Positions 9,896-63,036 of a DNA stretch of 64,000 nucleotides are shown here, piece by piece; position 1 is the stretch's first letter, and each line of letters begins with the position of its first letter. Made by a program: the position numbers and the translations under genes. The notes under the pieces were generated by a model. The model did no database searches and was not told the origin of the DNA. It worked only from the letters and a program-made list of their open reading frames with translations. Location of the stretch: sequence record PZ386974.1, one strand, 5' to 3'. The DNA is from a phage.

Positions 9896-10165
9896 TTATT
9901 TCTGTGCAATTTCGATGTAAGTTTTCAAAATATTTTGCCAATTAGGCATACCTTCTTGGTCATATGCCGGAGAACCGTCTTTGTTTTTGAATGATGCAAG
10001 TTTATCGGTGGCCCAATAACCTTTAGCTCGAGCTTCAGAATCAACTTTCATCCATACTTTGTTGAAGGCATTACCATTAACTTTTGCACCATATTTTTCT
10101 ACTAACTTAACTGCTTCAGCTTCCAGAACTTTTAAAGTATCTCGTAAGAAACGTGCTTTAGTCAT
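9896..10165 (-). CDS. hypothetical protein (antisense small gene between 23 and 24)
   Basis: 89-aa ORF with GAGGAG RBS and upstream early-type promoter; sits where I recall T4 carrying segD (uncertain). Confidence 0.55.
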   Translation of the reverse strand: MTKARFLRDTLKVLEAEAVKLVEKYGAKVNGNAFNKVWMKVDSEARAKGYWATDKLASFKNKDGSPAYDQEGMPNWQNILKTYIEIAQK

Positions 10166-10195: not shown

Positions 10196-10225
10196 ATAGT
10201 ATCATATACCAAATACGTTGTAAAC
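10196..10225 (-). promoter_or_regulatory. T4 early-type promoter (GTTTACA-N17-TACTAT) for ORF 9896-10165
   Basis: minus-strand GTTTACA, 17-nt spacer, TACTAT; same architecture at several other minus-strand gene starts. Confidence 0.45.
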
Positions 10226-12955: not shown

Positions 12956-13152
12956 TTCTTCACCTTTTTGTTAATCAAACGTTTACGGTATACAACTTTT
13001 TCTTTTGCTTTAAACTTTGACCGAGCTGTCTCGGCTTTAGTCCATAGTAATCCAACTTCTTTAGGTTGTAAACCAATTTTTTGAGCAATTTCTACGAATG
13101 AAAATCCCGCCTCATGTAATGTATAAACTTCAACTTCAGCTCTCATAATCAA
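12952..13152 (-). CDS. hypothetical protein, possible HTH (24.3-like)
   Basis: 66-aa ORF; ATGA overlap with downstream ORF. Confidence 0.5.
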   Translation of the reverse strand: MIMRAEVEVYTLHEAGFSFVEIAQKIGLQPKEVGLLWTKAETARSKFKAKEKVVYRKRLINKKVKK

Positions 13153-26199: not shown

Positions 26200-26206
26200 A
26201 GAAAAA

Positions 26207-26226
26207 GGGAGACAACGTCTCCCTTT
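26207..26226. terminator. bidirectional terminator hairpin (GGGAGAC...TCTCCC) between gene 54 and alt-side genes
   Basis: GC stem flanked by A-run and T-run between convergent transcription units. Confidence 0.55.
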
Positions 26227-26232
26227 AGGGGT

Positions 26233-26526
26233 TTATTTACGGAATGAAAGGAATGCTGGTGCTCGGAATGGAGTATCATCTTTAGAGTATTTAACTAATA
26301 CGACCATTGGTACCTCTGTTTCTAAATGACCCGTCACTACACCGACAAAAATTTGATCAGTGTGTTCAGGGTCACGAAAGTTTTTAAGAGGTTCCATAGC
26401 AATATGGAATGCACCTGGGAATACTCGATTCAATTCGTCAATCACAGCTTCGTTAAAAGCATCATCCGCTGGGATAACATCTTCAACTACTAGTTCTTGA
26501 CCATTAAAGCGAAGCATAGATTTCAT
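26233..26526 (-). CDS. hypothetical protein (alt.-1-like)
   Basis: 97-aa product from ATG with GAGGAAA RBS; early-type promoter upstream at 26556-26585. Confidence 0.55.
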   Translation of the reverse strand: MKSMLRFNGQELVVEDVIPADDAFNEAVIDELNRVFPGAFHIAMEPLKNFRDPEHTDQIFVGVVTGHLETEVPMVVLVKYSKDDTPFRAPAFLSFRK

Positions 26527-26555: not shown

Positions 26556-26585
26556 ATAGTATCACACATCCATGTGTTTGTAAAC
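26556..26585 (-). promoter_or_regulatory. T4 early-type promoter (GTTTACA-N17-TACTAT)
   Basis: minus-strand GTTTACA, 17-nt spacer, TACTAT, overlapping 3' end of alt. Confidence 0.45.
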
Positions 26586-28672
26586 TATCCTTGGACAAAT
26601 TTAAACGGAACTGATTCTAAATCCATTAAAGATGCTAACAATTTCAATCCTTTAGGAGCACTAGTTTTTTCTACAAATGAAGAGAACGATACTGGCTCAT
26701 CCGATTCGATTTCACCCGTCATAGCAACCACCTCGCCTGTTTCCATGAGAACATCACCATCATAAATGACAGCTTCATCCAACTGGTCCGAGGACATGAC
26801 TTCAGCTTGAATAAATTTAAGGTTGGATTCTAAACCCGCACCAGTGTCAGATGACGCATCTGTAATTTTATTTATTTGCAAGAGAATGCCTCTAGGCAAA
26901 ATAATTTCTTGCTCATTAGGGTGATTACTCAACTGTCCTGGATAAATCACGTTAACTTTATGAGCGCCATCAATAGCCCATCCAACGTTAACACGGATTT
27001 GTTCTGGCGCATGCATAGCTGTTCTTACTTGACTAGGAGAAATAGTAACACCTTCGTCATTATTGTCAATGTTAAGCTCTTTGCGAACTTCTTCAGGAGC
27101 AAGTCCAAGGGCAACGTTCTCTTTAAACCCACCGAAAATAATAGGAGCTAGTGAAGTGGAAACATAGTTTCTGAAGTAGAATACCTTATTTTTAACCATT
27201 GCTTCGTAAATAGGCATTCTGATAGACTGAGCTCTATATAACGTTAGTCCTTCAGGTAAACGGTCTCCATTTAAAAACGCCGAATCAAGACCATCAATAG
27301 CGCGTTTAACTTCATCTTCATCCGCAACATCGTAAAAATCCGGTTTATAACGACCTAACAACATATTATTGATATCTATATATGCAGAAGAGGCATATTC
27401 ACGAATAGCTCGTTTTTCAGCAACAGAGTATTGTTTAGGGTCTCGATTCATTGTTATATTAAAGGTGCCTCTAGCCGATTCTCTGGCATAAGTATACATC
27501 ACATTAGACAAGAACGCTGATTTACGTTGTTTCCAAGTTCTTTCAGATACTTCAGCTAAAACGTCGTCAGGCAGTTGGAAATTATCACGTCTAAAATCTT
27601 CAAACCATTCGTCTTTAATAGAGTCTGCAATTTCATTTGCAGCTTCAACAAAAGCAGCTAATGCTTTAACAGATGTTGTTTTTTCGGTTTTAATTTTCTT
27701 AGCAAACTTTTCTAAAGTCGGCTTAATAACACTACCATAAGAAACTTCATCAGCAAATTTAAAGGATTCATCAATACGATTATAAATCTTATTTTCGATA
27801 TCAGCAACTAAAGTGCCTTTTGCTGTGGACGATGCTTGGGCTAGTACGATTTCATATGCTTCAGGAAGTAATTCGGCCGTAGCTGGGCCACTAACTTCTT
27901 TAGCAGAATTTTCGTATTTCTGGAATAACTCACCTTCTTGTCGGTCAGCTTCTAAAGATTGACTTGCTGCAATAGCACGACGAGAAATTTTAGTACGAGC
28001 AATAACAGGCTTATCTTTACGTTTTTCTTCTACAGCAGCAATAGAACCAGCGATAGCCGTTTCTTTGGTGACCTTTTCGCCAGTCTTTTTACTCACATAA
28101 ACTTCGCCAACATCAGAATCTACTTTCGCGTACAACTCTGTGTTAATGTTAGGGATGCCTTTAATATCTTCAATGTTGGCATTTTTACGAACCATCATCA
28201 CATAGGTGTGTTTACCTGTGAATTGATACATTGCCGACAATACTTTAAAACGACCACCGGTTTTAGTAGAAACTAAACGAGCAAGAAGAGTTTGAAGCTG
28301 TTGTCCACGTCCTTTCAATTTCTTGGTAGGGAATCGGAACAGAACTGCATCCATACGAAGAGCTTTAACCTGTTCATATACTGTATTGAAAATAGTGTTG
28401 ATTGCATCAATAGGAGCAGGACCAAGGCCATTTTTCAATTCAGCTAGATTACCCTTTTCAGACAGACTCATAATAACAACATGAGCGTATTTGTCGCCAA
28501 GTTTAACTTGTTTTACAGCGTCGCCTTCGGAAAGGTAAGAGAATAAACGAACTACAATATTTGTATCGATATCACCAATTTTCCAGACTTGTGGAACTTT
28601 AGCTTTAGGGTTCAAATTGACGACAGGAAGACTGCCTTCAGATTCAAACACTTCATTTAATTGTTCAGACAT
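26585..28672 (-). CDS. alt: Alt ADP-ribosyltransferase (packaged, modifies host RNA polymerase)
   Basis: 695 aa; C-terminal ART signatures (YVSTSLAP STS motif, EQEIILPRG catalytic Glu); T4 synteny next to gene 30. Confidence 0.88.
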   Translation of the reverse strand: MSEQLNEVFESEGSLPVVNLNPKAKVPQVWKIGDIDTNIVVRLFSYLSEGDAVKQVKLGDKYAHVVIMSLSEKGNLAELKNGLGPAPIDAINTIFNTVYEQVKALRMDAVLFRFPTKKLKGRGQQLQTLLARLVSTKTGGRFKVLSAMYQFTGKHTYVMMVRKNANIEDIKGIPNINTELYAKVDSDVGEVYVSKKTGEKVTKETAIAGSIAAVEEKRKDKPVIARTKISRRAIAASQSLEADRQEGELFQKYENSAKEVSGPATAELLPEAYEIVLAQASSTAKGTLVADIENKIYNRIDESFKFADEVSYGSVIKPTLEKFAKKIKTEKTTSVKALAAFVEAANEIADSIKDEWFEDFRRDNFQLPDDVLAEVSERTWKQRKSAFLSNVMYTYARESARGTFNITMNRDPKQYSVAEKRAIREYASSAYIDINNMLLGRYKPDFYDVADEDEVKRAIDGLDSAFLNGDRLPEGLTLYRAQSIRMPIYEAMVKNKVFYFRNYVSTSLAPIIFGGFKENVALGLAPEEVRKELNIDNNDEGVTISPSQVRTAMHAPEQIRVNVGWAIDGAHKVNVIYPGQLSNHPNEQEIILPRGILLQINKITDASSDTGAGLESNLKFIQAEVMSSDQLDEAVIYDGDVLMETGEVVAMTGEIESDEPVSFSSFVEKTSAPKGLKLLASLMDLESVPFKFVQG

Positions 28673-32353: not shown

Positions 32354-32407
32354 ATTTTTCCACTTACTAAAGAAATCATTATACTCTAATCCGTCCTTGG
32401 ATGTAAA

Positions 32408-33022
32408 CTACTTAATGAAATTAATTTCTACCGGATGAACAACAGGTTGAGCAGTGATATATTGAGTAATTGCTTTCATGACTAGAGCTTCAGAACCAGG
32501 ATTTTTCTCAACGAATTCACGTGCTTGGTTATGAGCTTCAAGTTCACTTAGTAAACCACTTCGTTGACATCCACGGTCTTGAGTACCCTGTTCAGATAAA
32601 AAGGCGACGATGTATTTTTCATCGTCATACGGTTTAGACGGTTGAGCAAATGTTCCTTTACTTCCAAAAGGAGAGTTATGACGCCACATCACGCCGTTAG
32701 GAGTTTCAACCTTCGTATATTCGTGTGGGCCATTTTTCTTAGTTTCTTGATGTGGAACTTCATGGACCTTAGGGTTAGGACATTCAATAAAATGCTCATC
32801 TAAATCAGTCGAGAATATTAAAGTAAAACAATTACTAAATTTACCAACACCTGCCTGATAAATTTTACCTTCAGACGTTCTAATTTCACAAACCGAGCCA
32901 GCATCAGTAACTTCTAAAACTTCAAAAGGCTCGATAAGGTCATATGAGAACATGTTTTTAAGGCGTGGAGTAATATCCCCATTTTTAAAATTCATTTTAT
33001 AAAAAGTATTAACTTTAAACAT
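32408..33022 (-). CDS. hypothetical protein (30.x, 204 aa)
   Basis: 204-aa ORF in T4-like codon usage. Confidence 0.6.
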   Translation of the reverse strand: MFKVNTFYKMNFKNGDITPRLKNMFSYDLIEPFEVLEVTDAGSVCEIRTSEGKIYQAGVGKFSNCFTLIFSTDLDEHFIECPNPKVHEVPHQETKKNGPHEYTKVETPNGVMWRHNSPFGSKGTFAQPSKPYDDEKYIVAFLSEQGTQDRGCQRSGLLSELEAHNQAREFVEKNPGSEALVMKAITQYITAQPVVHPVEINFIK

Positions 33023-33423: not shown

Positions 33424-33497
33424 TTTATTCTCCAGATGTTTAAGTTGTTTGTTGGTACAGGTCTATAATAACATAACCTGTACCAAAGTAAACTGTT

Positions 33498-33908: not shown

Positions 33909-33937
33909 ATAGTAACACATCCTACAGGAGAGTAAAC
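33909..33937 (-). promoter_or_regulatory. T4 early-type promoter (GTTTAC-N17-TACTAT)
   Basis: minus-strand GTTTACT, 17-nt spacer, TACTAT, upstream of ORF 33498-33866. Confidence 0.45.
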
Positions 33938-35541: not shown

Positions 35542-36112
35542 AAAAGTTTCGGATTTGTTCCCAATTCAGAGAACGAAGATTATTACGAGAGTACTGAATT
35601 ACTTCAATACCGGCTTGTTTTAGAATTTCGGCCCAATTTTCAGGAGATCTGTCATATAATTCCGCGTATACAACCTTTTTAATACCTGACTGCGTAATAG
35701 CTTTAGTGCAATCAGGACACGGAGAAAGCGTAGTATATAACGTAGCACCTTCAATAGAATTACCTTTACGAGCTGCAAACAAAATTGCGTTCAGTTCCGC
35801 ATGGATTTCGTTATTAGCAGACCATGCACTATGAGCGGCCCGATGTTCTTTAGCCAAAACAAAATTATCCACCCGTCCAAATGCTGTAGTGCCTTCTTTA
35901 TGCCCAGCAACGATGACCGGGCTTGGTTTATTCTTCAACCAACCGTTTTCGGATGCATGTTCGCAACAGTTTGTACCACCTGAAGGAGAGCCATTATAAC
36001 CTGTAGAAATAATGCGTCCATCCTTTTCAATGACGGCACCAACTTTCCATGAACAACATTTTGATTCTTGAGAAATCAGATATGCAATCTGAAGGTATGT
36101 GCTAGCTTTCAT
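35531..36112 (-). CDS. cd: dCMP deaminase
   Basis: 193 aa; zinc-binding CDA motifs (HAE..., PCPDC); T4 Cd length. Confidence 0.93.
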   Translation of the reverse strand: MKASTYLQIAYLISQESKCCSWKVGAVIEKDGRIISTGYNGSPSGGTNCCEHASENGWLKNKPSPVIVAGHKEGTTAFGRVDNFVLAKEHRAAHSAWSANNEIHAELNAILFAARKGNSIEGATLYTTLSPCPDCTKAITQSGIKKVVYAELYDRSPENWAEILKQAGIEVIQYSRNNLRSLNWEQIRNFCGE

Positions 36113-37104
36113 TATTGAACCTTATTAATATAAGTTAACAGCTCTTTAGTTTGTTCCCAACTGATGCACGCATCGGTAACGGAAACGCCATAGGACATAT
36201 TATCAGAAATTTTTTGATTTCCTTCATGTAGGAATGATTCTATCATAATTCCTTTGACCAAATCATTAGCTGCTAAATTTTTACCAATACCAATTTGATT
36301 GCTATAATGCCCATCAGCGTTTGCATGGCTACAGTCAACCATTACATAATGATTCAGACCTACTGCCCTTGCTTTGTTAGAAGCTTCTTGAATATCAGAA
36401 GAATGATAGTTCGGGCCGTTGGTCCCACCACGCAATACGATATGCGTATTCTGATTACCTTCAGCTTCAACAATGCCTACAGTACCATCGACGTCCATAC
36501 CCATATACCGATGAGGCCAGGCGGCACTATACATCGCGTCTGTAGCTACTTTAATAGAACCATTGGTTGCGTTCTTGAAGCCTACGCACATCGGTAGACC
36601 TGAAGCAATTTCACGATGTGTCTGACTTTCAGTCGTACGGGCGCCAATAGCAACCCATGAGAAAATACCAGAAAGATACTTAATCGTGAATGGGTCTAAT
36701 ACTTCAGTTGCTAATGGAAGTCCCATACGTAGAAGTTTACGACACAATGTTCGTGCAACTATAAGACCGTGGTTCATATCAAAACTTCCGTCAAGATATG
36801 GATCATTTACAAGACCTTTCCAACCTACGGTAGTTCGAGGCTTTTCAAAATAAACGCGCATCACTAACAGAACATTAGGAAGACGAGTTTGAAGTTCGGC
36901 CAGACGTTTGCCGTATTCAACAGCAGCAATAGGGTCATGAATTGAACAAGGACCTACAACAATAAGTTTGCGTGGGTCTTCACCGTTCATAATCGAATTA
37001 ACTTGTTCGCGATGAGAAGCCACTTGTGATGCGTAAGCTTCCGACAAAGGAATAATCTCAGCCAGTTCTTTTGGAGAAATAAGTTTTCCGACGACAGGTA
37101 ACAT
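36112..37104 (-). CDS. class I 3-deoxy-D-arabino-heptulosonate-7-phosphate (DAHP) synthase
   Basis: 330 aa; full-length similarity by recall to E. coli AroG/AroF/AroH incl. VVGPCSIHD, KPRTTVGWKGL, IGARTTESQ, DCSHAN, ESFLHEGNQ, TDACISW; stop overlaps cd start (TAATG). Confidence 0.9.
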   Translation of the reverse strand: MLPVVGKLISPKELAEIIPLSEAYASQVASHREQVNSIMNGEDPRKLIVVGPCSIHDPIAAVEYGKRLAELQTRLPNVLLVMRVYFEKPRTTVGWKGLVNDPYLDGSFDMNHGLIVARTLCRKLLRMGLPLATEVLDPFTIKYLSGIFSWVAIGARTTESQTHREIASGLPMCVGFKNATNGSIKVATDAMYSAAWPHRYMGMDVDGTVGIVEAEGNQNTHIVLRGGTNGPNYHSSDIQEASNKARAVGLNHYVMVDCSHANADGHYSNQIGIGKNLAANDLVKGIMIESFLHEGNQKISDNMSYGVSVTDACISWEQTKELLTYINKVQ

Positions 37105-37491: not shown

Positions 37492-37521
37492 ATAGTATCA
37501 CAACTCTACCATGTTGTAAAC
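37492..37521 (-). promoter_or_regulatory. T4 early-type promoter (GTTTACA-N17-TACTAT)
   Basis: minus strand GTTTACA, 17-nt spacer, TACTAT upstream of ORF 37226-37462 and DAHP synthase. Confidence 0.45.
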
Positions 37522-39617: not shown

Positions 39618-39647
39618 ATTATACTCTGCTCCCGAGAGTTTGTAAAC
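39618..39647 (-). promoter_or_regulatory. T4 early-type promoter (GTTTACA-N17-TATAAT)
   Basis: minus strand GTTTACA, 17 nt, TATAAT. Confidence 0.5.
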
Positions 39648-39871
39648 TATTTTACTAAAGATTCAATATACTCATGAAGAGCTTTAGTCGCTACTGCCCA
39701 CTTATTCTGATATTCATTTTTCAGATTAGCACGAGACTGAACTAACAAGCGATCATTAGTCGGAGGCAAAGATTCTAATCGTTGAATCTGGCGTCCATAA
39801 ATCATAGCCGCCATTTCAGATTCATAGATAAGCCCTTTAATGTATTCATGCTGTTCTTTAGTCATTGGCAT
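39647..39871 (-). CDS. hypothetical protein (pseT.1-like)
   Basis: 74-aa ORF. Confidence 0.5.
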   Translation of the reverse strand: MPMTKEQHEYIKGLIYESEMAAMIYGRQIQRLESLPPTNDRLLVQSRANLKNEYQNKWAVATKALHEYIESLVK

Positions 39872-40152
39872 TTTTCCTCTTTTAAACCACTACGATAATA
39901 ACATATCATAGTCTTCTGGTCGTGTACATATCTTTTTACGTCGTTTAACCAGATACGAAATTCTTGAGAGTCTTCAAATGGCATTCCGACCCACGGATTA
40001 CCATCAATAACCTTTACTTGCCATTTCTGGTTATATTCAGCAATAGATTCTGGCCATGGCGGATGTAAAGTTTCTTTAGGGCTTAAGGGCACATCCTGGG
40101 CACATCCGGCCAAAATGCCAATAGATAATACAACTGCGGTTAATTTAATCAT
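39862..40152 (-). CDS. outer-membrane spanin lipoprotein (o-spanin, PseT.2-like)
   Basis: 96 aa; signal peptide with lipobox LAGC; immediately downstream of i-spanin-like gene. Confidence 0.65.
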   Translation of the reverse strand: MIKLTAVVLSIGILAGCAQDVPLSPKETLHPPWPESIAEYNQKWQVKVIDGNPWVGMPFEDSQEFRIWLNDVKRYVHDQKTMICYYRSGLKEEKCQ

Positions 40153-40505: not shown

Positions 40506-40993
40506 GTTTTAATAATCTCAATGATTTCATCTCGGGATAATCCATTGATAAGAACGGTTTTCGGACCATCGCACTGGATTTTGTACGATTCAAACAATAC
40601 ACACAACTCTTCTGCTGTATGATACGGACTTGAGATTCCGAGACGGTTGAATTTGTCGGTAAGAGGGTCGCAAATAATGTAGAATTTTATACCTGAGATA
40701 TGTACGTTTGGTTGACTAATATTAATGAACACATTAGCGTCATATTTAGTCAAATTGTTTTGAAGAAATTCTACCATGGCATTAACTGCTTCCGGCATCG
40801 CTTCACGTTTCTCTTCGGTGTAACGTGTTGAATATTCCTTTTGCTTTAACTTCTTTTTAGCATTTTTCGCTAGAGTAACACGTAGGTCAGTAAGATAACC
40901 AACTGCACGGCCTTTCTTAAAGACCCTGATTCCGTCTGTAGAATCACCAAATGCTGCCACAACCATATCGTTAGTAATCAATTGCATATTCAT
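40493..40993 (-). CDS. alc: Alc, inhibitor of host transcription on cytosine-containing DNA
   Basis: 167-aa product from internal ATG (MNMQLIT...) with GAGGAG RBS; matches T4 Alc. Confidence 0.9.
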   Translation of the reverse strand: MNMQLITNDMVVAAFGDSTDGIRVFKKGRAVGYLTDLRVTLAKNAKKKLKQKEYSTRYTEEKREAMPEAVNAMVEFLQNNLTKYDANVFINISQPNVHISGIKFYIICDPLTDKFNRLGISSPYHTAEELCVLFESYKIQCDGPKTVLINGLSRDEIIEIIKTCLK

Positions 40994-41023: not shown

Positions 41024-41053
41024 ATAGTAACACCTTCCTTGGTGTTTGTAAAC
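41024..41053 (-). promoter_or_regulatory. T4 early-type promoter (GTTTACA-N17-TACTAT) for alc
   Basis: located in the alc leader (the ORF-track N-terminal extension) just downstream of the rnlA stop. Confidence 0.45.
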
Positions 41054-41055
41054 CA

Positions 41056-42189
<1,134 letters not shown>

Positions 42190-42205: not shown

Positions 42206-42235
42206 ATTGTACCACAATCCTTGTGGTATGTAAAC
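42206..42235 (-). promoter_or_regulatory. T4 early-type promoter (GTTTACA-N17-TACAAT) for rnlA
   Basis: minus strand GTTTACA, 17 nt, TACAAT, then GAGGA RBS. Confidence 0.45.
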
Positions 42236-42645
42236 TACTTTTTCTTATGTTGGATATTCCAAGGCGGGTTGAACTTTTTGATAAAAAGTGGTTCTTCAAG
42301 GTCCATTGTTGCGATGGTCATTGAACCAAGTTCGTTGGTGACTGAAAGGTCAAAACATTGGCGGGCCCAGAATTCAACCTTTTTGCCTTGCATTAAGGCA
42401 TCCAAAATCATAAGTGATTTTCTTGAATCTGAAGTCTGGTCTTTTCGATTTATGGCTGTTCGATAATAGTTAATGCGTTTCTTTAAATTCTTGGTTTTAC
42501 CAATATACACAAGTTCGTCATCTATAGCAATAGCGTATATGACATTTTTCTTATTAGGGACATCAACTGTTTTAATTGTTGCATCTTCTAATAGCTCCAA
42601 TTCTGTATATTTAATAAAGGAATATTCGGCGGCAATATCTTTCAT
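42235..42645 (-). CDS. denA: endonuclease II (GIY-YIG family)
   Basis: 136 aa, same as T4 EndoII; VYIGKT motif. Confidence 0.9.
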   Translation of the reverse strand: MKDIAAEYSFIKYTELELLEDATIKTVDVPNKKNVIYAIAIDDELVYIGKTKNLKKRINYYRTAINRKDQTSDSRKSLMILDALMQGKKVEFWARQCFDLSVTNELGSMTIATMDLEEPLFIKKFNPPWNIQHKKK

Positions 42646-48451: not shown

Positions 48452-48498
48452 TTTTGATTTGATAGGGCTACTATAACATAACCCTATCTGATTGTATA

Positions 48499-48903
48499 CT
48501 ACTTTTTAAAAGTTTTTTGCAAAAGTTTGATGATTTCGTCGACGTTGGTTTCATCTACGATACAATGGATTTTTGTTACACCTAAAGTTATACCTTCGTT
48601 AGTAGGTTGAGGCTTTACTAAATCTACCTCAGTAAAGTACTCAATAAAGTATTTGAACTCGTCAGGATAAATCTCAAAATAAGTTTCAATTTCACCACCG
48701 GCAGAACATACAGTACCATCTTCCATAGTTACACTTACTACGTTTGACGTATCGCTATCATAATCAGGTTCCATTCCGTTTACAACAAAACTAGGCCCGT
48801 GGAGTTCAATCAATTTTAACATCTTAGCGTTATTATGTGGTGCTTCTTGAACAAAGTCGTCTTTAAATAAAGGGTTAATGATATAAGATTTTCCGATTTC
48901 CAT
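48499..48903 (-). CDS. hypothetical protein (frd.3-like)
   Basis: 134-aa ORF; early promoter upstream. Confidence 0.55.
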   Translation of the reverse strand: MEIGKSYIINPLFKDDFVQEAPHNNAKMLKLIELHGPSFVVNGMEPDYDSDTSNVVSVTMEDGTVCSAGGEIETYFEIYPDEFKYFIEYFTEVDLVKPQPTNEGITLGVTKIHCIVDETNVDEIIKLLQKTFKK

Positions 48904-48932: not shown

Positions 48933-48961
48933 ATACTAACACATCTAGTGAAGAAGTAAAC
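48933..48961 (-). promoter_or_regulatory. T4 early-type promoter (GTTTAC-N17-TAGTAT)
   Basis: minus-strand GTTTAC, 17-nt spacer, TAGTAT upstream of ORF 48499-48903. Confidence 0.4.
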
Positions 48962-52198: not shown

Positions 52199-52230
52199 AT
52201 GAACCTCTTGTTCAGTTAGTCAACTTGTCT

Positions 52231-52260
52231 ATAGTAACACACTCATTTGAAAGCGTAAAC
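52231..52260 (-). promoter_or_regulatory. T4 early-type promoter for rnh
   Basis: minus strand GTTTACG, 18-nt spacer, TACTAT. Confidence 0.4.
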
Positions 52261-62828: not shown

Positions 62829-62874
62829 AACGTTTTATTCATTCCACTTAGTTGATATGGATATAGTACCATTA

Positions 62875-63036
62875 TCAGTGTTGATTGTAAACGGCTTTTT
62901 CTACGCTTTTAACGTAATTGGTATAGTCTTCCTGTTCGTACGAGTGTAAGGCTAAGAACAGAGCTAATAATTCATTATAGACTAAAGCCTCACGCTCACG
63001 TTCGGCCTCTACTACGTTCTGAAGATTATGACTCAT
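62875..63036 (-). CDS. hypothetical protein (asiA.5-like)
   Basis: 53-aa product from internal ATG with AAGGA RBS. Confidence 0.45.
   Translation of the reverse strand: MSHNLQNVVEAEREREALVYNELLALFLALHSYEQEDYTNYVKSVEKAVYNQH

Follow-up and report, generated by a model that had tools for sequence, protein, structure and literature searches.

T4-type early promoters have been known as a class since the 1980s; the early promoters (Pe) of T4 were reportedly described by Liebig and Rueger in 1989, by Wilkens and Rueger in 1994 and 1996, and by Miller et al. in 2003. The T4 early consensus carries GTTTAC at positions -36 to -31 together with an A-rich stretch at -40 to -44 (PMC1524935). In the review by Hinton, the T4 early promoters are treated as combined "UP/-35/TGn/-10" promoters which outcompete the promoters of the host and are stimulated by the injected ADP-ribosyltransferase Alt (PMC2988021). 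The coordinates of 58 predicted early promoters of RB69 were published by Nolan et al. in 2006 (PMC1524935 Additional file 3). Primer extension revealed activity of T4 Pe148.6 at 1 min after infection (PMC6024815), and the AsiA RNA of T4 was detected at 1 min by dual RNA-seq (PMC9697503). No genome-wide start-site map of T4 or RB69, determined by dRNA-seq or Cappable-seq, was found in literature searches.

Promoter-early stem-loop (PeSL) cassettes were described in RB49 and phi1 by Arbiol et al. in 2010, who proposed attenuator and recombination-linker roles for them and considered the elements of T-even phages to be analogues, not homologues (PMC2839356). At the T4 genes e, soc, 49 and I-TevI, hairpins sequestering the ribosome binding site (RBS) enclose an internal late promoter and provide temporal control (PMC3014915).

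In the present work, a family of minus-strand sites in a 64-kb window (the whole stretch of DNA that was analysed) was compared with these systems. The original prediction had described the sites as early promoters, several of them placed inside or directly at the 3' end of the upstream gene. As a whole, the flagged sites are best explained as T4-type early promoters (Pe) of an RB69-like Mosigvirus, an assignment that we regard as very probable.

Results

Origin of the window and detection of the sites

The window extends from gene 17 to the arn region and comes from a T4-type Mosigvirus that resembles RB69. It was aligned with positions 99367–161311 of RB69, to which most of it is about 96% identical, and the Mosigvirus Shigella phage phi25-307 was 97.7% identical over a 6-kb stretch around the focal site, 41024–41053. 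The DNA identity between T4 and the window was 72–87%. The plus strand carries the late structural genes and the minus strand the early and middle genes; alt (26585–28672) and asiA are among the genes encoded in the window.

The strict pattern GTTTACW-N17/18-TAYWAT gave nine matches, all nine on the minus strand, with 0.08 expected according to 100 shuffles. When one mismatch was permitted, 52231–52260 was gained. The relaxed pattern GTTTAC-N16-19-TANNAT resulted in 13 matches on the minus strand and none on the plus strand. The bare hexamer GTTTAC was nearly strand-neutral, with 21 plus-strand and 28 minus-strand occurrences.

Both strands were also scanned with a two-block weight matrix (-56 to -27 and -20 to +10, separated by a variable spacer), a check which had been proposed together with the original prediction. 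The family was separated cleanly from everything else: the family member ranked 14th scored 33.4, the next minus-strand match 3.9 and the best plus-strand match 8.9. The matrix revealed a 14th site, 48470–48499 (-36 G at 48499), with a score of 42.1 though it was outside the training set. The leave-one-out scores of the 14 sites were 14.1–41.6 versus 6.7–9.9 for the best plus-strand position, and the matrix maximum in simulated sequence was 7.8 on average with one extreme of 23.0. The window equivalent of the weak RB69 Pe:136969 (about 39894–39944, ATGTAC...TATGTT/TATTAT) had a poor matrix score and was left uncounted.

At least ten minus-strand sites had been predicted to fit GTTTAC(A/T)-N17/18-TA(C/T)(T/A)AT. 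All ten listed sites were real, but only seven matched that pattern exactly. The other three required its relaxation: the spacers of 33909–33937 and 48933–48961 are 1 bp shorter, the latter site also having TAGTAT, and in 52231–52260 the GTTTAC is followed by G. The list was incomplete as well, since four sites had been missed, of which 13044–13073, 33465–33493 and 62863–62892 were found by the GTTTAC patterns and 48470–48499 (GTATAC...TATAGT) by the matrix. Below, the sites are referred to by their lower coordinate.

A scan with the generic sigma-70 consensus yielded 68 sites with 58.9 expected; it provided no discrimination in AT-rich DNA and was dropped as evidence either way. Such an uninformative scan leaves some room for regarding the matches as products of chance and composition in an AT-rich window, or as silent relics of duplicated DNA without promoter function. 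Against this stand the approximately 100-fold enrichment of the specific early pattern, found strictly on one strand of the window, the fixed positions of the sites relative to the start codons, and the hexamers, which are kept across genera while the spacers diverge. An explanation by chance or relics is thereby left barely credible.

Architecture of the sites

The GTTTAC at -36 to -31 was exact in 13 of the 14 sites, the remaining one having GTATAC. The spacing between the -35 and -10 elements, counted from TTTACA (G = -36), was 17 in ten sites, 16 in three and 18 in one. The -10 hexamers, all of the TAnnnT form, were determined to be TACTAT in eight sites, TATAAT in two, and TACAAT, TATTAT, TAGTAT and TATAGT in one each. 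The extended -10 element TGn was present in 11 sites; two of the exceptions, 32378 and 39618, have the perfect TATAAT, the remaining one being the weak 13044. The UP-like tract had the consensus AAAAA at -44 to -40 with a modest information content of 0.3–1.2 bits per column. A Shine-Dalgarno sequence and an ATG followed 18–36 nt past the nominal start in 13 sites, the gap at 13044 being 82 nt.

All 14 sites are located on the early-gene strand and face early-gene orthologues, and the genes downstream include alt.-3, 30.7, 30.8, cd.2, alc, rnlA, frd.1, frd.2, rnh and asiA. The T4 early promoter architecture which had been claimed for the sites is supported by the GTTTAC, the spacer of 17 ± 1, the TGn, the TAnnnT and the A-rich -44 to -40 region. 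The sites resemble the T4 early promoters in all these elements as well as in spacing, orientation and the place before early genes. They differ from them in their spacer and leader sequences, and 32378 has no counterpart in T4 or RB69; there is no difference in kind.

The sites could instead be read as MotA/AsiA-dependent middle promoters, considering that AsiA is encoded in the window, that RB69 has MotA, and that the -10 element and TGn are shared by middle promoters (PMC2988021). In the middle promoters, however, a MotA box with the sequence (a/t)(a/t)(a/t)TGCTTtA takes the place of the -35 element, its centre being at -30 (PMC2988021, PMC1524935). G(T/A)T(T/A)AC was found at -36 to -31 in all 14 sites and GCTT at -30 to -27 in none, and separate MotA-box-like motifs are located elsewhere in the window (12703, 18877, 35232, 47438, 51400 and 54544). 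With no MotA box in any of the 14 sites, the assignment to middle promoters was rejected on sequence and is highly improbable.

The window was found to contain about 20 late-type TATAAATA boxes and 6–7 MotA-box-like middle motifs as further promoter-type motifs. The statement that the family gives a transcription map for the window holds for the early layer, whereas the late and middle layers are left out of it.

Orthologous sites in RB69, other Mosigviruses and T4

According to coordinate mapping, 13 of the 14 sites are orthologues of the RB69 early promoters predicted by Nolan et al., and the focal site, P(alc), corresponds to Pe:138093. The site without an RB69 orthologue, 32378, sits in an 850-bp segment absent from RB69. 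Eight orthologous sites are annotated as promoters in GenBank OL960576 (Mosigvirus vB_EcoM_SA79RD). Six of these eight, including those at rnlA/alc and denA/rnlA, are labelled "similar to phage T4 early promoter GTTTAC(N14)gtggTAttaT".

The motif recurs in T4 at nine orthologous positions; the -36 G of the counterpart of the focal site is at 136336. Only two of the T4 orthologues were tied to curated Pe names, Pe133295 by the GenBank note and Pe148.6 by the published map (PMC6024815). The -36 G of the first of them, the orthologue of 37492, is at 133331, which gives a start at 133295, i.e., Pe133295 of the T4 GenBank note. The -36 G of the second, the orthologue of 52231, is at 150763 with the corresponding start at 150727, the left end of the Pe148.6 map (PMC6024815).

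The individual sites, all of them on the minus strand, were assigned as follows. The site 10196–10225 (nominal start about 10189; leave-one-out score 41.6; RB69 Pe:109605) is located in the gap between gene 23 and gene 24 and would drive a small minus-strand ORF at 9896–10165. A weaker candidate early promoter, 13044–13073 (leave-one-out score 20.6; RB69 Pe:112451), lies 82 nt upstream of the 24.2 ATG. No T4 motif was detected at the orthologous position of 13044, and no promoter is annotated there in OL960576. This site may be weak or inactive, considering its location within a coding sequence, the lack of TGn, the 82-nt leader and the lack of a T4 counterpart.

P(alt.-3), 26556–26585, has its nominal start at about 26549; it corresponds to RB69 Pe:125323 and to an early promoter of OL960576, and the T4 -36 G is at 123093. 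The site following a 204-aa ORFan, 32378–32408, has a spacer 1 bp longer than usual, which contains the hairpin ATCC-AAGGAC-GGAT, and is annotated as a sigma-70-like promoter in OL960576. A Pfam search of the two ORFs flanking 32378 gave no matches. The spacers of P(30.7), 33465–33493 (RB69 Pe:131670; T4 -36 G at 129918), and P(30.8), 33909–33937 (RB69 Pe:132117; T4 -36 G at 130310), are both 1 bp shorter, and for the former OL960576 lists a promoter that overlaps a terminator. The same annotation is given there to the promoter at the pseT.1 stop, 39618–39647 (RB69 Pe:136687). P(cd.2), 37492–37521 (nominal start 37485; RB69 Pe:134561), is annotated in OL960576, and P(rnlA), 42206–42235 (nominal start 42199; RB69 Pe:139277), is an early promoter in the same record.

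P(frd.1), 48470–48499, has the sequence GTATAC-N18-TATAGT (RB69 Pe:145300; T4 -36 G at 146143), and P(frd.2), 48933–48961, is located downstream of gene 32 (RB69 Pe:146013; T4 -36 G at 146875). P(rnh), 52231–52260, occupies the divergent gap between rnh and gene 34; it reads GTTTACG...TACTAT with the nominal start at 52224, corresponds to RB69 Pe:149309 and is annotated in OL960576. P(asiA), 62863–62892, corresponds to RB69 Pe:160217, and its T4 counterpart, GTTTAC...TATTAT at T4 161182–161211, is inside the 3' end of asiA.1.

Overlap of the sites with the ends of upstream genes

The minus-strand sequence of the focal site is GTTTACAAACACCAAGGAAGGTGTTACTAT. It has the form GTTTAC-N18-TACTAT, its -10 hexamer is preceded by TGT, and its nominal start is at about 41017. 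In the wider minus-strand context, ...ggatatTAAtgGTTTACaaacaccaaggaaggtgtTACTATggcttttatcaacaacacGAGGAGaaaattATG, the TAA is the stop of rnlA (41056–41058) and the ATG at 40993 is the start of alc. The promoter core opens about 2–3 nt after the stop, the UP-element region falls in the 3' codons of rnlA, and the alc ATG is 24 nt downstream of the nominal start. The location of this site at the rnlA stop, in the alc leader, had been stated exactly.

At five sites one and the same G is the last base of the upstream TAG stop and the -36 base of the promoter; the genes ending in this way are alt (26556), the 204-aa ORFan (32378), pseT.1 (39618), denA (42206) and frd.2 (48470). A TAA stop about 3 nt upstream (TAATGGTTTAC) was found at two sites, 37492 (cd.3) and 41024 (rnlA). 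Altogether, the upstream stop is 0–5 nt from the -36 G in 8 of the 14 sites. One more stop, that of an upstream 71-aa ORF (62875–62877), is inside the promoter spacer of 62863, and one site, 13044, is contained in the coding sequence of gene 24.3. The placement within the preceding gene or at its 3' end was correctly recognised for 26556, 39618, 41024 and 42206, and it is also true of 32378, 37492, 48470, 62863 and 13044. The early region is almost without intergenic space, and it is due to this tight packing of the genome that the promoters are written over the last codons, the stop and the short gap of the preceding gene.

Conservation of the alc promoter

A scan of IMG/VR with the Alc protein retrieved 14 T4-like contigs with Alc identities from 95% down to 48%. 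All 14 contigs had GTTTAC-N17-19-TAnnnT at the rnlA stop, mostly in the form gagTAGTTTAC. In each of the 16 T4-like phages that were compared, with Alc identities as low as 48%, the alc promoter was present at the stop of rnlA; across the genera its hexamers were conserved while the spacers diverged. Since each of the 14 Alc-bearing contigs keeps the motif at the rnlA stop, both the alc promoter and its placement are, by these comparisons, old and conserved.

Dyads in the promoter spacers

Inverted repeats around the -10 hexamer were determined in four sites. The 9-bp perfect repeat of 33465, GGTACAGGT/ACCTGTACC, had a duplex energy of -19.6 kcal/mol versus a cross mean of -7.1 kcal/mol; a 9-bp repeat, GGTAGAGTT/AACTCTACC, is present in 37492, and the dyads of 48470 and 39618 are GATAGGGTTA/TAGCCCTATC and GGAGCA/TGCTCC, respectively. 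Dyads internal to the spacer were found in 42206 (8-bp hairpin TACCACAA-GGA-TTGTGGTA), 41024 (6-bp dyad AACACC/GGTGTT) and 26556 (6-bp hairpin). The spacer of 33909, with TCTCC..AGG, is able to pair with the downstream Shine-Dalgarno sequence CCTGGAGA, and that of 48933 is likewise able to pair with its downstream Shine-Dalgarno. Outside the window, the spacer of RB69 Pe:61376, TTCTCCTCTAGTTG, is an anti-Shine-Dalgarno sequence which pairs with CAACTAGAGGAGAA over 14 bp, and the anti-Shine-Dalgarno pairing of the RB69 Pe:7443 spacer extends over 13 bp.

As a control for the promoter consensus, the pairing of each spacer with its own downstream region was compared with its pairing with the downstream regions of the other promoters (cross). 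For the 58 published RB69 promoters, the longest complement between spacer and downstream region was 5.62 on average in own pairs versus 4.51 in cross pairs (z = 8.3), and complements of at least 8 bp occurred in 10 of the 58 own pairs versus 1.8% of the cross pairs. The duplex energies for the 14 sites of the window were -9.2 (own) and -6.5 kcal/mol (cross), and those for the alc promoter across phages were -16.2 and -10.6 kcal/mol, respectively; in both cases none of 5000 permutations reached the observed value. Helices of -15 to -22 kcal/mol are formed by 11 of the 14 distinct alc promoter sequences despite unrelated spacers. The focal site is an exception to most other phages at the alc position, its spacer-to-leader pairing being -4.2 kcal/mol.

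The spacer-internal hairpins alone were weakly enriched over column-permuted controls (z = 3.0), and three of the five longest were identical paralogues. The lone internal mismatches in long stems were G.T on the sense strand in six cases and A.C in one; this excess of G.T over A.C weakly supports an RNA-level role of the dyads. No T-run follows any of the dyads, and their interpretation as canonical intrinsic terminators was rejected for this reason; the WebGeSTer-based annotation of OL960576 calls several of them terminators.

The dyads are the basis for another reading of the sites, as composite promoter and stem-loop cassettes of the PeSL kind, with promoter activity as one function and with the main evolutionary role of short homologous linkers for recombinational gene shuffling. 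The order of the elements agrees with the PeSL layout, i.e., an upstream stop, an AT-rich tract, the -35 and -10 boxes, a stem-loop between or over the boxes, a Shine-Dalgarno and an ATG (PMC2839356). RB69 has neither site 32378 nor the ORFan flanking it, and a promoter similar to 32378, Pe:8387, is located about 120 kb away in the RB69 genome. P(alc) and P(alt.-3) of T4 have a common 56-nt cassette, identical at 55 of 56 positions, in unrelated flanks. However, the GGGG...CCCC stems of RB49 and phi1 are longer and less AT-rich than those in the window, and most of the promoters are at positions conserved from T4 to RB69, beside conserved genes rather than shuffled ORFans. A linker role would add to the promoter reading and would not replace it; as the main role of the sites it is possible, though rather unlikely.

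Discussion

The sites analysed here are T4-type early promoters with very close precedents. The feature is a known one in three respects: the class itself, the orthologous sites predicted in RB69 in 2006, and the GenBank annotation of close relatives. Among the T4 early promoters, nine direct positional orthologues of the window sites were identified, including Pe133295 and Pe148.6. With respect to the predicted RB69 promoters, the differences are 32378, located in DNA which RB69 is missing, and the poorly scoring window equivalent of Pe:136969. Promoter activity in this phage would follow by homology from what is known of T4 and RB69.

Read as early promoters, the sites would be recognised by the unmodified sigma-70 RNA polymerase of E. 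coli immediately after DNA injection, before phage protein is available. The polymerase would read four stacked elements, namely the A-rich UP element at about -40 to -44, the phage-specific -35 element GTTTAC(A), the TGn and the TAnnnT. Transcription would start about 7 nt past the -10 hexamer and proceed leftward into the early genes alt.-3, 30.7, 30.8, cd.2, alc, rnlA and others.

A second layer may be superimposed on these promoters. Most of the promoter spacers contain the 5' half of a dyad, and its 3' partner is found later in the spacer, around +1, or in the downstream Shine-Dalgarno sequence. A helix begun in the spacer would form solely in RNA read through from upstream, since its 5' arm is upstream of the start site. 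Such a helix could insulate the transcription units from one another, as was proposed for the PeSL cassettes and is known for the late-promoter/RBS hairpins of T4, and it might act by attenuation, by protection of the 3' end, or by masking of the downstream ribosome binding site. The mechanism would not be uniform, because the focal site lacks the spacer-to-leader pairing. The own versus cross comparison for RB69, the helices of the alc promoters and the G.T mismatches are consistent with a systematic selection of early-promoter spacers as the 5' arm of a helix with their own +1 region or downstream Shine-Dalgarno, whereby read-through RNA would be folded and either masked or hairpin-protected/attenuated while local transcripts stay open. 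We offer this proposal tentatively and consider it less probable than its opposite.

In layout, the sites resemble the PeSL cassettes, with the stop codon in an AT-rich tract, a putative strong early promoter, a candidate stem between the boxes or over the -10 element, and the Shine-Dalgarno with ATG, and the dyads in the window are above chance. In contrast, the RB49 and phi1 promoters, which have G at -33, are nearer to the sigma-70 consensus and carry G/C-rich stems, whereas the stems in the window are AT-richer, 5–10 bp long and without polyG/polyC, and some of them reach the downstream Shine-Dalgarno. The similarity to the hairpins of T4 e, soc, 49 and I-TevI lies in the 5' arm being upstream of the proximal start, by which only read-through RNA would mask the Shine-Dalgarno. 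Judged by their pairing potential, the candidates for this logic are T4 P(alc), RB69 Pe:61376 and Pe:7443, and the sites 33909 and 48933 of the window. The internal promoter of the T4 hairpins is a late one, whereas here it is an early promoter, the spacer itself would be the 5' arm, and the function is putative.

The early-transcription map of the phage was recoverable from the raw sequence, yet nothing is added by it to phage biology. The promoter-embedded dyads are the sole part with residual value, and they were largely anticipated by the PeSL work. If the dyads function in the RNA, they would account for the insulation from read-through of closely spaced early genes that each have a strong promoter, and also for the covariation of spacers, which are normally thought neutral, with their leaders. 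If the proposed selection of the spacers is true, the logic of an internal promoter inside an RBS-sequestering hairpin, which belongs to a few late genes of T4, would become a genome-wide early rule in T4-like phages.

Inverted repeats in the early promoter spacers

The T4-type early promoters of the window, 14 in number and named here by their coordinates, all lie on the minus strand. Inverted repeats were detected in which the 5' arm is formed by the spacer between GTTTAC and the -10 hexamer, and the 3' arm lies at +1 or at the downstream Shine-Dalgarno sequence. The dyads at 33465-33493, 37492-37521, 39618-39647 and 48470-48499 have arms on both sides of the -10 hexamer, those at 42206-42235, 41024-41053 and 26556-26585 are contained within the spacer, and at 33909-33937 and 48933-48961 the spacer can pair with the downstream Shine-Dalgarno (all minus strand). 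The pairing of a spacer with its own promoter exceeded cross-promoter pairing in the window promoters (0/5000 permutations), in those of RB69 (z = 8.3) and in a set of 14 alc promoters. The dyads predicted from the window sequence resemble both the promoter-early stem-loop (PeSL) cassettes of phages RB49 and phi1 and the RBS-masking hairpins of T4.

Beyond the region homologous to the window, the spacers of five RB69 early promoters predicted by Nolan et al. 2006 (Pe:61376, 7443, 20537, 64934 and 58138) start with TTCTCC(T)C; each is perfectly complementary, over 8-14 bp, to the GAGGAGAA Shine-Dalgarno region of its downstream gene.

Motifs of the spacer and leader

At the spacer centre, between about -24 and -19, a purine motif (AAGGA or TGGA) was observed repeatedly, and it frequently forms the loop of the spacer hairpin. 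It occurs as CAAGGA in 32378, 41024 and 42206, as ATGGA in 26556, and is also present in RB69 Pe:8947, 51019, 52042 and 72567. The G at -20 contributed 1.3 bits to the promoter weight matrix.

Just 3' of the nominal start, the leader motif ATCAAC(A/T)AC is conserved in 5/14 window promoters (+5 to +13 of 10196, 26556, 41024, 48933 and 62863), and close variants were found in three more (33465, 37492 and 48470). The motif is common in RB69 promoters as well, as tcaac or tcaaaac. It may function as an initial transcribed sequence or as a signal for RNA processing.

Additional genes and signals of the region

The segment 32169-33016, missing from RB69, is found in many other Mosigvirus genomes. 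It encodes a 204-aa ORF, for which a Pfam search gave no match, and promoter 32378 is located at the stop of this ORF. The spacer hairpin of 32378, CATCC-AAGGAC-GGAT, is similar to RB69 Pe:8387, about 120 kb distant in that genome.

A DAHP synthase of 330 aa (36112-37104, minus strand; PF00793, E = 5e-75) is encoded between cd and cd.2, a position at which it is missing from RB69 and T4. This is an auxiliary gene of the aromatic-amino-acid pathway within the early region. In relatives the gene is annotated as aroF.

Within the alt coding sequence, TTGACA-N16-TACTAT with a TG (27042-27069, minus strand) is a good generic sigma-70 match without the GTTTAC signature, and it may be a promoter internal to the gene, or the match may be fortuitous. 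The interval between the convergent genes alt.-3 and 54 contains a strong, G/C-rich hairpin of 10 bp, AAAGGGAGAC-GTT-GTCTCCCTTT, with T-runs after it (26204-26226); it is probably the bidirectional terminator ending the alt.-3 early unit.

A cassette common to P(alt.-3) and P(alc)

A 56-nt cassette is present at both P(alt.-3) and P(alc) of T4. It extends from -38 through the Shine-Dalgarno, and its two copies are identical at 55/56 positions and have unrelated flanks. The copies were located at ~13040-13095 (T4 123038-123095) and ~26283-26338 (T4 136281-136338) of the T4 sequence L001. The same promoter pair in the window, 26556 and 41024, has GTTTACAAACAC and the leader ATCAACAACACGAGGA in common. 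These shared sequences in T4 and the window suggest gene conversion or cassette exchange between the two promoters.

Stop codons fused to early promoters

In 5/14 window promoters, one G serves both the TAG stop of the upstream gene and position -36 of GTTTAC, resulting in TAGTTTAC. The stops concerned are 26585-26587, 32408-32410, 39647-39649, 42235-42237 and 48499-48501 (minus strand). At the rnlA stop, the same overlap was detected in 11/14 related IMG/VR contigs, and most of the alc-upstream loci L012-L024 show it. The TAG/GTTTAC overlap is a recurrent means of joining a gene end to a promoter.
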